A stretch of 32,207 nucleotides of DNA from a virus. Position numbers and translations under genes: made by a program. Below, in pieces: positions 10,535-15,710 of this stretch. The notes under the pieces are model-generated. The model saw only the letters and a list, made by a program, of their open reading frames with translations, searched no databases and had not been told where the DNA came from. Each line of letters begins with the position of its first letter. Position 1 is the first letter of the stretch. Location of the stretch: UHGV virus genome UHGV-1442421. The stretch is one strand, 5' to 3'.

Positions 10535-12034
10535 TTAAGTTCTCCGTGCGATGGGCCTGATTGGGGCTGGTATCTTTTTCTCTTTTGGTTTTTTGATGTC
10601 GCGCATCATTTTTGCGAAGCGGCGCATCATGTATGCATAGCGAACGGCTGAGAGAACGTCGTCGTTAAGCTTGACGATTTTCCCGTTTTCATCACGGTGA
10701 TAGAGGCGGAACTCCTCAAAGAATGGCTCACAGGTGTTGAATACTTTGAAGCGACCATCGAGCATCATGTCGCGCAATTCAGTGATGCCAGGCTCCACAG
10801 CATTACCGCCATCAGGCCATGTCGCATGCTCCTGCAACATCATAAATCCAGCGTCTGCATACTGCCCTTTGAGCTGCTCACCACCGCCCTTCTCATGCTG
10901 GTTTCCGTCATGAGGCCATGCGGTTGGCACTTTATGCGCCCATGATTTAACAGCTCCCCACGCCTGAACGGCTGTCTTTTCTTTCGCCTTCCACACGCGT
11001 GAAACGTAGATTGTGTCTGCGTCCTTATCCCACCAAAGCTGAACCTGAGCCTGTGGGTGATCCCATCCGAAATCCATCCCGCCAATCACGTAGAAGTGAT
11101 CAGGGCACTCGAACGGCTGACACTTAATAGTCTCTTCCGGTATCTGGAAGATTCGACCGCTACCCATCGTAGGAATACCGCGAGCACGCGCCTCTCTCTC
11201 ATGCTCTGGATAGGATGCGATGATTTGCTCTTTCTGCTCGTCGGTATAGTGCTCAGCGTCATAGATGGTCATGTTGACCACTTTCTGCGACTTGCTGGGA
11301 TTCTTCAGGAACTTGGTAACAACGTCAGACATCCCCATCAGCGGGGTAAACGTCAGAATTGAGAATTGCCCGTATTTGTTGGTACGGGTAAGCCCTTCGC
11401 CATAAATGCTGTATGGTGGCTCTTCGTCAAACCACACGCCATGGATTGTGTCACCCTGCCAGCGAGCGCGGCCTTGCGAGTATGGTTTGAAGTAGCAGAT
11501 TGAAATGCCATCTTCAACGCCATCAGCCGTGTGATGCTTAACCAGAAGATGATCAACAAGGTTCGGAAAGAAAGGAGACTTCTTCCAGCTAATGATGTCT
11601 TCTTTCGGTATGGAACCGTAGCCAGGCTCATCATTCTCTTCGATACGACCGCACAGGATGCGTTGAGTCGTTTTGGTTACCGTCTCGTTTGTCTCGCCGC
11701 CAATCCAGAAGACAACAGGCTCATAGAAACGCTTACCTTTCCACTCACCGCCATATTTACCATCAGCCGGATAGCCTTTTGTTCCCGGATAACGTCCGGT
11801 AAGGTGAAACGCGACTTCAGCAGCACCAGTAAATGACTTACCAAGCTGGTTACCAGCCATAAAACAGCGCTCTGGATAGTCATGCCCGGCGTCGATGAAC
11901 TCACGCTGTTTGCTGTATGGCGTAAATTCATATAGCAGGTGTGTGTTCCGGTAGTTCTCTTCTTCTTCGAGTAGCTCGAGCAATTCGATTTGCTCTTCGT
12001 CGCTCAGGTTATCAAGAATCGCGTCCAGTTCCAC
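10535..12034 (-). CDS. Terminase large subunit, P22 gp2-like (499 aa; GTG start)
   Basis: ORF track; GTG at 12034 with SD AAGGAG about 10 nt upstream; size and position; overlaps small-subunit end by 23 nt. Confidence 0.85.
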
Positions 12035-12500
12035 GGTTGAATAGCTCCTTGATACGAGAGCGCCGCTTATCGCGATCTCCCTTATCAGGTGTCACGTCTT
12101 CAACTTGCGACTGCTCTTTGAGGCCCAAATCACGGGCGATGATGTTAGCGTTGAGAAGGTCAGCGGCTGCGCCAGAGAATTTCTGGTCGTAGATGATGTC
12201 TTCCGCTCGTGATGTGACGTCAGAAAAACCTTCCATTGACCGGAAGGTTCCCCATGTTTGCCTGGTGATATCAAGGAAGGTACACAATCCTGAAATAGTC
12301 ATGGCTCGCATCTTAGGGACGTTAGCCTTAATTATTTCTCCCTGATATGAAAATACCTTACCCTCCCATAGCGGGTTATCATCAGCCCACTCAAAGTATT
12401 CACAACAAGCAGCCCACAGCGCCTCGGGCGATTCGAATTTAGGATTTCGCCCATGACTACTGCGGGCCTCCCAAAATCGGTTGCCCTTTGGTGCTGCCAT
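12012..12500 (-). CDS. Terminase small subunit, P22 gp3-like (162 aa)
   Basis: ORF track; same length as P22 gp3; position directly upstream of the large subunit. Confidence 0.8.
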
Positions 12501-12579
12501 ATTGATTATTTCCCTTCTGCTTGCTTATCCCATTCATCGCGGAATTTGGATGGGTTGTCGAAACCTTGAGTTGCCATGT

Positions 12580-12822
12580 TTATGCTCCGGTAGTGAACAG
12601 GTCTAACGCTTCCTTCGATTTACGCACCGCTTCGATAGTGCGAGATGTGAAGTCTGGATTTGCACCGCCATCGTTGTAGTGCAGCTTGAACAATTCCAGT
12701 TTCAACTGGTCAGCACCAATGAATGCAAAAGCTTCCTCTGCCGCTGAATTGTTCTTAGATAGCAGTCGGTAAATTTCTAACTTGAATTTCTGTTCTTCAG
12801 TCATGGGAATAATCTCTGCCAT
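12580..12822 (-). CDS. Hypothetical small protein (80 aa from ATG at 12822)
   Basis: ORF track frame; GGAG 5 nt upstream of the internal ATG at 12822; no recognised motif. Confidence 0.4.
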   Translation of the reverse strand: MAEIIPMTEEQKFKLEIYRLLSKNNSAAEEAFAFIGADQLKLELFKLHYNDGGANPDFTSRTIEAVRKSKEALDLFTTGA

Positions 12823-13269
12823 TGTTGGCTCCATTTATCCGTTAAAAGGGATATCAGTTAAGTTATCCCGTGTAGGGTATAAGCCATTGTCGAGACCACT
12901 CATTGAATGGTCTCTGCAATAACCGATGTCTTTCCATCAGTCCGCCACCACAAAGAATCTTTTTTGCCATAAGGCTGGAGGTTCATCTTTCAGTGGCTGC
13001 CAGTGTTATTTCCCCACTTACTGGCTTGGGTTTTTTCGCGGTACTGCCGTAACTGGTTGCCCAGAATAAATTCCGGTTTCATTATCAAGCCCACCCGTAG
13101 ATAGGCTTTGTAATGAACCGGCTCTTATCTCAACGCAGCCCCTTACCGCGCGCCATATGCTTAACTTCAAGCATCAGCAATGAGATGTTTAATCTGGATT
13201 CACTCCAGAAGTGATCACCACCCTGTCTACAGAGCCAGATGTGAAGGATGATGAGTAGAATTATCGCTA

Positions 13270-13728
13270 TCATCGAAGGCATTGCGTCCTGATGTATTCC
13301 TGCAGGTAGTTAACCTGCGCGGTTATCCTGTCGATTCCACTTCGGAGACGGTAATAATTGAGTTCAGCATCTGCTGTAAGTCTTGGGCTTTCTCCATCGC
13401 CCATGCTGCTGGCTCCGGTCGTTGACTTTGCACAGGTGGCGGCGACTTGCAGGCGCTTACGACCAGCAGAAACATCAGCACGGAGACTTTCGATAGTCGC
13501 GTTAGCATCAGCAAGCTCCTTTGTGTATCTGGCGTCAAGTTCTGCAACATCACGCTGACGCTGCTGCATGTCAGAGATGGTGGCGGTCGCCTGCTTCAGC
13601 TCACTGACTTTTTTATCACGCTGTTCTTTGTAGGCGATGGCATTATCACGGTAATGATTAACAGCCCATGACAGGCAAACGATGATGCAGATAACCAGAG
13701 CGGAGATAATCGCGGTTACTCTGCTCAT
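13270..13728 (-). CDS. Rz: Spanin inner-membrane subunit Rz (152 aa)
   Basis: N-terminal TM segment and coiled-coil; near-identical to lambda Rz as I recall it; start overlaps R stop. Confidence 0.85.
13323..13508 (-). CDS. Rz1: Spanin outer-membrane lipoprotein subunit Rz1, embedded in the Rz +1 frame (61 aa)
   Basis: Internal ATG at 13508 gives a signal peptide ending ...LLVVSAC, then a proline-rich region; embedded arrangement as in lambda. Confidence 0.65.
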
Positions 13729-14201
13729 ACCTCAATCTCTCTGACCGCTCCGCCAGCCTCTTTGAATTTTGCAATCAGGCTGTCAGCCTTATGCTCGAAC
13801 TGACCATAACCAGCGCCCGGCAGTGAAGCCCAGATATTGCTGCAACGGTCGATTGCCTGACGGATATCACCGCGATCAATCATCGGTAAAGCGCCACGCT
13901 CCTTAATCTGCTGCAATGCCACAGCGTCCTGGCTTTTCGGAGAGAAGTCTTTCAGGCCAAGTTGCTTACGGTAGGCATCCCACCAACGGGAAAGAAGCTG
14001 GTAACGTCCGGCTGCTGTTGATTTGAGTTTGGGGTTTAGCGTGACAAGTTTGCGAGGGTGATCGGAGTAATCAGTGAATAGCTCTCCCCCTACAATGACG
14101 TCATAACCATGATTTCTGGTTTTCTGCCGTCCGTTATCAGTTCCCTCTGACCACGCCAGCATATCAAGGAACGCCTTACGTTGATTATTGATTTCCACCA
14201 T
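13725..14201 (-). CDS. R: Endolysin (lambda R-type lytic transglycosylase, 158 aa)
   Basis: Translation recognised as lambda R ([24 protein letters not shown]...); same length. Confidence 0.9.
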
Positions 14202-14508
14202 CTTCTACTCCGGCTTTTTTAGCAGCGAAGCGTTTGATAAGCGAACCAATCGAGTCAGTACCGATGTAGCCGATAAACACGCTCGTTATATAAGCGAGAT
14301 TGCTACTTAGTCCGGCGAAGTCGAGAAGGTCACGAATGAACCAGGCGATAATGGCGCACATCGTTGCGTCGATTACTGTTTTTGTAAACGCACCGCCATT
14401 ATATCTGCCGCGAAGGTACGCCATTGCAAACGCAAGGATTGCCCCGATGCCTTGTTCCTTTGCCGCGAGAATGGCGGCTAACAGGTCATGTTTTTCTGGC
14501 ATCTTCAT
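14185..14508 (-). CDS. S: Holin (lambda S-type, 107 aa, dual-start MKM)
   Basis: Translation recognised as lambda S with the MKM dual-start motif and hydrophobic segments. Confidence 0.9.
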
Positions 14509-14754
14509 GTCTTACCCCCAATAAGGGGATTTGCTCTATTTAATTAGGAATAAGGTCGATTACTGATAGAACAAATCCAGGCTACTGTGTTTAGTAATCA
14601 GATTTGTTCGTGACCGATATGCACGGGCAAAAAGGCAGGAGGTTGTTAGCGCAACCTCTTGCCACCCGCTTTCACGAAGGTCATGTGTAGAAGGCCGCAG
14701 CGTAACTATCACCGATGAATTCATGATAGCCAGTGGCTACGGCTCAGTTTGGGT

Positions 14755-14880
14755 TGTGGCGGCCGGAATCGAACCGGCTTCCATCGGTGCGCTGCCGATT
14801 GCAGTACGCGCGGCGGGCAGCTACATGACTAGTATTTTCACTATCGCCTATCTGCTAGCTCGCCATTGAGCTTCACCACA
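14755..14880 (-). other. Degenerate tRNA-like element: canonical T-arm and 3' acceptor, candidate 5' acceptor and D-arm about 100 nt upstream, non-canonical anticodon loop
   Basis: Minus-strand GCCGG-TTCGATT-CCGGC (14762..14778) then CGCCACA; candidate partner TGTGGTG (14874..14880) and D-arm GCTC..GAGC; no encoded CCA. Confidence 0.3.
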
Positions 14881-14950
14881 ACGATAAGAGCACTCGGTGC
14901 ATTTAAGCCAAGCCCCATAAGGGAGAATGCTCTTACCTGTTGTGCAAACG

Positions 14951-14980
14951 CAAAAAGCCCCGAGCTATTAACTCAGGGCT
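14951..14980 (-). terminator. Intrinsic terminator, tR'-like, ending the short PR' leader transcript
   Basis: Minus-strand hairpin AGCCCTGAG / CTCGGGGCT (one G-U pair) followed by TTTTTG. Confidence 0.6.
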
Positions 14981-15015
14981 TTATTTAACGAGTGCATTTA
15001 TCCATCGTTGAGTCA

Positions 15016-15044
15016 AATTTACCCAACTTTATTCAAAAAGTCAA
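15016..15044 (-). promoter_or_regulatory. Late promoter PR' (-35 TTGACT, 17-bp spacer, -10 TAAATT) with overlapping Q-utilisation region
   Basis: Read on minus strand just downstream of Q; matches the lambda PR' motif as I recall it. Confidence 0.6.
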
Positions 15045-15086
15045 TATCATGCCGTTAATATGTTGCCATCCGTGGCAATCATGCTG

Positions 15087-15710
15087 CTAACGTGTGACCG
15101 CATTCAAAATATTGTCTGCGATTGACTCTTCCTTGTGGCATTGCACCACCAGAGCGTCATACAGCGGCTTAACAGTGCGTGACCAGGTGGGTTGGGTAAG
15201 GTTTGGGATTAGCATCGTTACAGCGCGATATGCGGCGCTTGCTGGCATTCTTGAATAGCCGACACCTTTGCATCTTCCGCACTCTTTCTCAACAACTCTC
15301 CCCCACTGCTCTGTTTTTGCTATATCAACCGCACGACCTGTACCGTGGCAATCTCTGCATCTTGCGCCTGGCGTCGCGGCACTACGGCAATAATCCGCAT
15401 AAGCGAATATTGCGAGCACTTGCAGTACCTTTGCCTTAGTATTTCCTTCGAGCTTTGCCACACCACGGTATTTCCCCGATACCTTGTGTGCAAATTGCAT
15501 CAGATAGTTGATAGCCTTTTGTTTGTCGTTCTGGCTGAGTTCATGCTTGCCGCAGAATGCAGCCATTCCGAATCCGGCTTGTGATTGCGCCATCCCCATA
15601 GCAGCCATCACATCAGTACCGGAAAGAGAGTCAGAAGCCGTAGCCCGTGGTGAGTCGCTCATCATCGGGCTTTTTGGCGAATGAAATTTAGCTACGCTTT
15701 CGAGTCTCAT
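15087..15710 (-). CDS. Q: Late antiterminator Q (lambda type, 207 aa)
   Basis: Translation recognised as lambda Q throughout (MRLESVAKFHSPKSPMMSDSPRATASD...). Confidence 0.9.
   Translation of the reverse strand: MRLESVAKFHSPKSPMMSDSPRATASDSLSGTDVMAAMGMAQSQAGFGMAAFCGKHELSQNDKQKAINYLMQFAHKVSGKYRGVAKLEGNTKAKVLQVLAIFAYADYCRSAATPGARCRDCHGTGRAVDIAKTEQWGRVVEKECGRCKGVGYSRMPASAAYRAVTMLIPNLTQPTWSRTVKPLYDALVVQCHKEESIADNILNAVTR

Follow-up and report, generated by a model that had tools for sequence, protein, structure and literature searches.

We found that the gap between the lysis cassette and the packaging genes of the virus genome UHGV-1442421, a P22-like prophage, is best read, from its sequence, as the near-empty form of a widespread conserved linker in which related phages swap accessory genes. 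With a probability of roughly 60%, this gap would be a near-empty allele of a conserved late-operon linker, with hairpins that are selected as RNA and with short patches that serve crossovers. We observed conservation, diversity of architectures, clustering of breakpoints, covariation and strand asymmetry, together with an absence of bor and cos, of promoters and terminators, and of Rfam matches. All coordinates refer to the window, which is the whole 32,207-nt stretch of DNA that was analysed. Every gene around the gap lies on the minus strand, and the gene order is as follows:

15087-15710, minus strand: lambda-Q-like antiterminator (ORF list)
14185-14508, minus strand: holin, S (ORF list)
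13725-14201, minus strand: endolysin, R (ORF list)
13270-13728, minus strand: Rz i-spanin, the upstream border of the gap (ORF list; RefSeq and Sf6 annotation, loci 97-99% identical)
13323-13553, minus strand: Rz1, embedded in Rz
12580-12834, minus strand: DUF2560 gene (P22 ORF80, Sf6 gene 67, HK620 hkbM), the downstream border of the gap
12012-12500, minus strand: P22-gp3-type small terminase, 162 aa
10535-12034, minus strand: large terminase

The original prediction had placed the gap at 12835-13269, which is correct, as the end of Rz maps to 13270 and the start of the longest DUF2560 ORF to 12834, and no ORF on either strand spans this interval. The product of the DUF2560 gene matches Pfam PF10834 at 6.5e-37 and also phrog_571. 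Upon closer examination, the ATG at 12834 exists through a C to T change that is specific to the window, with ACG found in relatives, and the true start of DUF2560 is likely 12822, which is preceded by GGAG (12829-12832) and is the same RefSeq start as in L001; the untranslated stretch would therefore reach 12823. The linker would sit in the Q-dependent late operon of lambdoid phages, leading from the lysis cassette to the DUF2560-terminase genes, and, judging from gene order and strand, it would be transcribed by read-through within the late mRNA, on the minus strand. Its proposed parts are a short ORF coupled to Rz, which is probably non-functional or weakly constrained, followed by hairpin a, a spacer, and hairpin c with the leader:

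13130-13282, minus strand: ORF of the Sf6 gp65 / phrog_11822 type, 50 aa (47 aa from the ATG at 13273)
13073-13121, minus strand: hairpin a, core 13080-13114 (fold; covariance model 58.1 bits, E = 1e-9)
12921-13072, minus strand: conserved spacer, core 12926-13030 (94-99% identity in 85 loci)
12881-12924, minus strand: hairpin c, core 12885-12920 (covariance model 54.4 bits, E = 6e-9)
12823-12884, minus strand: DUF2560 leader (98-100% identical across loci)

We observe that the gap is 95-99% identical across 210 phage records and that, together with both flanks, it is collinear at 95-99% with Sf6, HK620, CUS-3, Kapi1, epsilon34 and many prophages. Parts of it are present in 2607 of 5426 complete E. 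coli genomes, with the junction of spacer, hairpin c and leader occurring in 742 genomes and that of ORF, hairpin a and spacer in 138. The distal 280 bp (12835-13115) are also found in the HK97-like cos phages HK97, HK022, mEp234 and HK140, in which they lie unannotated between gp73 and the HNH protein gp74, and their presence in cos phages makes a role as packaging signal unlikely. The spacer core of ~105 nt (12926-13030) is near-invariant across phages of E. coli, Shigella, Salmonella and Klebsiella, both P22-like and HK97-like, in an alignment that took in P22, ST64T, SPN9CC, HK97 and Emek. Identity is 98-100% in the leader (12835-12884) and 94-99% in the spacer (12921-13050), whereas in the adjoining DUF2560 coding sequence it falls to 80-82%. 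The leader carries a GGGAUA...UAUCCC hairpin (12848-12869), and its GGAG is a Shine-Dalgarno sequence. The conserved elements of the gap are common to E. coli, Shigella, Salmonella and Klebsiella phages and are maintained.

Next, we investigated what related phages carry at this position, using 80 IMG/VR loci found through the DUF2560 protein and 15 related phage or prophage stretches taken from annotated records, with the right end of lambda as comparator. Across the 93 related loci compared, those with both anchors (51) displayed at least 43 architectures of differing length, from 232 to 1911 bp, and the window allele of 445 bp is near the minimum of this range. Pfam searches on the cargo returned Rha, two kinds of KilA-N protein, Phage_gp49_66 (Sf6 gene 66), a T5orf172/GIY-YIG-like protein and DUF551, with several further cargo genes being ORFans, and in phage Huey anti-CRISPRs are annotated in the slot. 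In P22 and BTP1 the slot holds rha and, on the opposite strand, pid, a moron equipped with a promoter and a terminator of its own (PMC3573128; Wolput et al. 2022, PMC8835761). This rha-pid region occupies the same interval between Rz/Rz1 and ORF80 (DUF2560) and shares the spacer and hairpin c with the window at ~93% identity, whereas the window has no rha, pid, pid promoter or pid terminator and thus represents the unoccupied state. Morons therefore occur in this slot in relatives, as pid and as terminator-preceded Rha and KilA genes, whereas the window itself has no promoter-like or terminator-like site and its sole ORF is without coding signature. Certain relatives have an annotated intrinsic terminator directly after Rz and before the cargo, which the window does not have. 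The annotated terminator of epsilon34 was considered as a signal of the gap and rejected, as it sits in inserted cargo that is missing from the window.

When examining where homology between loci stops, we find that 295 of 300 homology ends fall within seven narrow zones, namely 13277/13269 (the end of Rz), 13107-13117, 13063-13067, 13050-13057, 12920-12925, 12900-12902 and 12832, and about half of all ends (152/300) coincide with the 5' edge of one hairpin or the other. In two chimeras, the Stx2 phage WGPS8 and locus L070, hairpin a is fused straight to the leader through the common ...GAUAAUG flank, the leader being the one that normally comes after hairpin b or c, and these sequences show crossovers that would have taken place inside the hairpin. 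The short conserved pieces would act as homology patches for the exchange, insertion and deletion of cargo, presumably by homologous recombination, and their use as crossover points would explain why breakpoints recur at the same few positions. PMC3029335 describes conserved boundary sequences at lambdoid module junctions with which breakpoints coincide, and proposes their use in homologous recombination; the concept goes back to the Susskind-Botstein modular theory and to Clark et al. 2001 on HK620, as cited there. Recurrent breakpoints and hairpin chimeras are what this classical model of lambdoid mosaicism predicts. As in the model, short stretches are kept between divergent modules, with leader and spacer conserved beside differing DUF2560 alleles and many cargo genes, and the mosaic breakpoints fall on this conserved sequence. 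The linker departs from the model in its hairpins, which covary, are strand-specific and share an internal loop that does not vary, and this implies that more than homology is under selection. In the Sf6 record, a boundary sequence (bsq7) is annotated inside Rz and none in the gap.

The hairpins share a common design, in which an outer 4-bp stem AUUR/YAAU is followed by a CA/GA 2x2 internal loop, an inner stem of 9-10 bp and a loop of 3-6 nt. The bases of the CA/GA internal loop are invariant and the sequence of the inner stem differs between types, of which a and c occur in the window and two more (b and d) in relatives, with compensatory differences between types b and c. The core of hairpin a reads AUUA-CA-AAGCCUAUC-(UACG)-GGUGGGCUU-GA-UAAU with a loop of the C(UACG)G type, and an outer stem CCGGUUC/GAAACCGG, an allele-specific extension, lengthens it to ~20 bp. 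The core of hairpin c reads AUUG-CA-GAGACCAUUC-(AAU)-GAGUGGUCUC-GA-CAAU, with GGUU/GGCU lengthening the lower stem to 8 bp. Approximately 80% of type-a loops are C(UACG)G or C(UGCG)G; UNCG-type loops are unusually stable in RNA. The strongest GC-corrected fold among 639 overlapping 300-nt segments of the minus strand is found at 12851-13150, and for the 301-nt interval 12835-13135 the MFE z-score is −7.9 on the minus strand and −5.3 on the plus strand, the strong value of −7.9 being due to the long hairpins.

Among the distinct hairpins (19, then 32 sequences), 96-99% of cells are paired compared to 33-55% in slid controls, changes on both sides are seen in 7 of 14 hairpin pairs, and the covariation score is 0.41-0.43 compared to 0.23 in column shuffles and at most 0.16 with slid partners; with just 3-4 hairpin types this covariation reflects few independent events, and the first sequence set was collected by a flank-fixing pattern. 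Because 54 cells are G-U, the two strands differ in pairing (96.4% sense, 85.7% antisense), and the sense strand is the more stable in 28 of 32 variants. Compensatory changes and one-strand pairing, the marks of a structured RNA element, are thus both found, from few independent types. Together they point to a structure at the RNA level, or at least in single strands of the sense sequence, and since the stems covary and pair better on the sense strand, we infer that the hairpins are selected as RNA structures. The original prediction had proposed leftover signals in the gap; conserved signals there are, in the form of two covarying hairpins and a near-invariant spacer and leader, and these are maintained elements instead of leftovers.

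Upon scanning the 32-kb window with the covariance model, we detect the two copies in the gap only. In relatives the model yields 133 matches, spread over 82 loci; each match is on the sense strand and falls between Rz and DUF2560, and among 89 other loci every match below E = 0.1 sits in the Rz-DUF2560 junction. In nearly every locus, the DUF2560 start is preceded at a distance of ~50 nt by the end of a family hairpin (c, b, a or d), and in relatives a hairpin starts 2 nt past the stop codon of cargo genes, as seen for the gp66 and HK97 gp73b families and for the Rha of phiKp_30. Two known classes were considered for these hairpins and rejected. Intrinsic terminators do not fit, as the sequence 3' of the hairpins is GAUAAUG... 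or GACAAUGG... and no U-tract comes after either stem, and REP-like repeats do not fit, as the model finds no copies in the 32 kb beyond the two in the gap. We found no description of these hairpins in the literature, with the epsilon34, BTP1 and pid papers covering the neighbourhood only.

Regarding their function, a role as RNA stabiliser or processing site appears most likely by analogy. Intercistronic hairpins are known from polycistronic mRNAs, including the C(UUCG)G hairpins of T4, the RNase III sites of T7 and the REP elements that stabilise bacterial mRNAs. The gap hairpins share with these an intercistronic position directly past stop codons, here with no U-tract following, and stable helices of 14-20 bp with an internal loop, with UNCG-type tetraloops in type a; they differ in having no sequence similarity to them and in being confined to one junction. 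Their geometry, 18-20 bp with a 2x2 internal loop, is compatible with an RNase III site or a 3' stabiliser. As elements of cistron ends or untranslated regions, they could block 3'-exonucleolytic decay or act as processing sites, and they would insulate neighbouring cistrons from the adjoining cargo.

The same conservation could stem from descent and recent spread, such that the linker is young DNA that recombination has carried among lambdoid phages, its palindromes are incidental and the slot is merely a tolerated place for insertions. We consider this unlikely, although it agrees with the 94-99% identity of most copies, with the neutral evolution of the small ORF described below, and with the boundary-sequence idea, which requires homology alone (PMC3029335). 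The spacer also fits it, since it shows neither covariation nor significant folding (MFE z = −1.7, with an alifold consensus that is not significant), and its variable sites are not enriched at unpaired positions (p = 0.27-0.43). The near-invariance of the spacer is not covered by the linker model, unless this is young DNA spread by recombination. However, multiple compensatory changes separate hairpin types b, c and d, with the CA/GA loop and the AUUR/YAAU pairs being kept, pairing is strand-asymmetric, a family hairpin stands ~50 nt upstream of DUF2560 in nearly all loci whatever the cargo, and the linker is better conserved than the adjoining coding DNA.

Decidedly unlikely is that the hairpins are a dedicated new cis element of a lambdoid accessory-cassette array, recognised by a factor, with the spacer core as a second recognition site. 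One hairpin would close each cassette, with the final one just upstream of the packaging genes. The recognising factor could come from the host, as an RNase, or from the phage, with DUF2560 and the small terminase as examples, and it would act either in processing of the late mRNA or in controlling how the packaging genes are expressed.

We also examined whether the gap encodes real small proteins, either a membrane peptide of 47/50 aa of the gp65 type, ORFs of 28-35 aa in the spacer, or both, which we regard as very doubtful. The original prediction had held that the gap contains no convincing ORF, and this is defensible in that the inner ORF shows no coding pattern, although an ORF of 47/50 aa (13130-13273/13282, minus strand) does lie inside the gap. 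Its 47-aa start overlaps the Rz stop as ATGA, its N-terminus is hydrophobic, an intact copy is present in 46 of the 48 loci (an internal stop occurs in one allele), and it is annotated as a CDS family, as RefSeq WP_015953503.1, Sf6 gene 65 and epsilon34 gp67; it may be translated through coupling to Rz. The gp65 segment is an exchangeable module, missing where homology stops at 13277 or 13269. Homology detection does return a gene-like match, full-length to phrog_11822 (E = 3.2e-37), but the substitution pattern is not of the coding type. Variable sites by codon position are 9:8:11 (8 synonymous, 21 non-synonymous), in comparison with 17:13:87 in endolysin R, 4:3:27 in holin S, 10:10:29 in 5' Rz and 26:10:56 in DUF2560, all of which show a strong third-position bias, indicating that the ORF does not evolve like a protein under selection. 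A search for distant homologues among 5.8 billion proteins returned only close ones (at least 73% identity), which include frameshifted or truncated variants, and the coding status of this ORF is therefore doubtful on sequence grounds. For the spacer ORFs of either strand, PHROG and Pfam searches gave no matches, codon periodicity and Shine-Dalgarno sequences are absent, start codons are polymorphic, and in phage Emek a change in the length of an A-run shifts the frame.

An independent small RNA gene, or a stable processed RNA acting in trans, could be formed from the spacer and the hairpins, and the near-invariant ~105-nt core at 12926-13030, the strongest minus-strand folding signal of the window and hairpins able to protect RNA ends would suit it. 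It is nevertheless highly improbable. Neither strand of the gap gave a sigma-70-like promoter or an intrinsic terminator, a scan of 12500-13800 for GC-rich stem-loops with a U-tract was empty, no Rfam family matched the gap at E <= 1, and no tRNA or tmRNA lies within it. The dRNA-seq annotation of the P22-like prophage BTP1, in which a spacer homologue is present as it is in P22, places none of its eight novel ncRNAs between Rz and the terminase genes. Furthermore, complementarity between the gap and the rest of the window is limited to chance matches of 12-13 nt, with no extended antisense target, and the spacer alone is not significantly structured. The small RNA that the original prediction had allowed for is consequently not borne out, nor did the promoter and terminator prediction it called for turn up either type of site; a processed fragment of the late mRNA may still derive from the gap.

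It is a very long shot that the hairpins are DNA-level, single-strand sites for dedicated cassette exchange or homing, similar to integron attC or REP/RAYT. Cargo genes end 2 nt before a hairpin, breakpoints occur at hairpin edges, flanks are conserved as stems vary, strand asymmetry suits single-stranded DNA equally well, and nuclease-type cargo (GIY-YIG/T5orf172) is sometimes present in the slot. Against this, the cargo is heterogeneous and, in the cargo examined, no recombinase or transposase is consistently linked to the slot; there are two copies per genome and none elsewhere; breakpoints also fall off the hairpins, at 13277, 13050-13057 and 13065-13067; and most type-a loops are of the UNCG type that is specially stable in RNA. 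Integron core sites are lacking as well, the flanks being AUUR-CA / GA-YAAU and not GTTRRRY/RYYYAAC, so that attC sites were rejected, as judged by eye with no dedicated attC model. No IHF or Chi consensus was seen by eye in the hairpin and spacer sequence.

Finally, an inert scar at which a lambda-type lysis cassette was joined with a head block of the P22 type, perhaps retaining degraded remnants of bor and cos, is already contradicted by the sequence and scarcely credible. Homology to lambda ends inside Rz, similarity to bor and cos is nil, and the gap is widely conserved and, along with both flanks, collinear across dozens of P22-like phages. In its favour, S, R and 5' Rz of the window are 94% lambda-like, and lambda carries bor and cos at the corresponding position. 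The comparison with the right end of lambda (45000-48502, with bor at 46459-46752) gave 94% identity over 14600-13459, after which the match stops, and the joint between lambda and non-lambda sequence thus lies inside Rz. The lambda-like part of the window consists of S, R and the first ~270 nt of Rz, and the description of Rz as lambda-type therefore applies to these ~270 nt and fails for the remainder. As to the bor and cos that the original prediction had noted in lambda, our examination of the lambda right end agrees, and the search it proposed against them (blastn with word size 7, and tblastn with Bor) returned zero matches in the gap. The lambda Rz-bor-cos region holds a matching place, with the lysis cassette before it and the terminase genes after it, whereas the window has no bor, no cos and no similarity past nt ~270 of Rz, and the lambda segment from S to cos (45000-48502) contains no hairpin of the gap's family by the covariance model. 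A seam between lambda lysis and P22 head genes at the gap is hence ruled out by a joint inside Rz and by the collinearity of holin, Rz, gap and DUF2560, at 95-99%, with many P22-like phages and prophages. What survives of the proposed recombination scar is a recombination-prone mosaic joint, with at least 43 architectures and recurrent breakpoints, and not a lambda/P22 scar.

Overall, the finding is mostly ordinary. That the region is a moron locus was known beforehand, as was the concept of boundary sequences, and the modestly new points are the family of hairpins and the near-invariant core of the spacer. The annotation is corrected in that the gap represents the unoccupied state of a highly variable slot of P22-like and HK97-like phages and not a lambda/P22 seam, the same slot holding rha, pid, KilA-N genes, gp49/66 and annotated anti-CRISPRs in relatives. 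The conserved patches provide fixed anchors for locating cargo genes in thousands of enterobacterial prophages, and the database ORF WP_015953503 / phrog_11822 can be flagged as one whose evolution looks non-coding. If the hairpins are indeed signals of RNA processing or stability, they would constitute a simple portable insulator, which would allow cargo to be swapped without disturbing the expression of the lysis and packaging genes.

We found that the 94% identity to phage lambda, which covers the holin gene S, the endolysin gene R and the 5' part of Rz, stops sharply at window position 13459, within Rz (13270-13728, minus strand). Because the identity ends there, the true lambda/non-lambda mosaic joint, as read from the sequence comparison, is intragenic, at a point where Rz1 is embedded in the Rz coding sequence. 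Within the adjoining gap, the annotated small ORF at 13130-13282 (minus strand; WP_015953503.1, Sf6 gp65, phrog_11822), a database hypothetical protein, displays a substitution pattern that looks non-coding, and it is possibly an over-annotation spread via RefSeq.

In Stx2 phage WGPS8 (L090, 2002-2086), a DUF2560-type leader is joined straight to hairpin a (13073-13121 in the window, minus strand), with neither the spacer nor the DUF2560 gene, and the fusion is followed by unrelated sequence; it is a natural recombinant in the 3' flank of the hairpin. In Sf6 and about 20 IMG/VR loci, a 58-nt insertion (CATCCCTCACAATCCAGG...) directly follows hairpin a, between the equivalents of window positions 13067 and 13065, and is absent from the window.

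When examining the old P22 GenBank record, we observe 833 bp without annotation between ORF201 (rha) and ORF80, which hold homologues of the spacer and of hairpin c, the second hairpin of the family, followed by the pid moron on the opposite strand, whose description in the literature postdates that record. The corresponding intervals are:

P22 locus (L087), 1301-2135: unannotated stretch
BTP1, 388963-389793: counterpart of the P22 stretch

Separately, the intergenic region between the antiterminator gene Q and the holin gene (14509-15086) contains a tRNA-like 3' fragment at 14751-14809 (minus strand), comprising T-arm and acceptor. A tmRNA model matches it partially (E = 2e-5), and ARAGORN called no tRNA there. 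The equivalent position is occupied by intact tRNA genes in Sf6 and BTP1, and the fragment therefore looks like the remnant of a tRNA. In folding strength, 14551-15150 ranks second in the window, on both strands.

The longest DUF2560 ORF (minus strand) opens with an ATG at 12834 created by a C-to-T change from the ACG of the relatives, whereas the start codon that is conserved, also an ATG, lies at 12822 behind a GGAG. Beyond this gene lies a further small frame:

12506-12577, minus strand: 23-aa ORF between the DUF2560 and small terminase genes

Its sequence is the same in 18 related loci and differs by one residue in 1 more, and in Salmonella phage Emek a diverged copy (L093, 1733-1801; MSAEGFNNPSKFRDEWDSSVKSK; 15/23 identical) lies in the cargo slot, where relatives carry accessory genes. 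This ORF may be a genuine mobile micro-gene.
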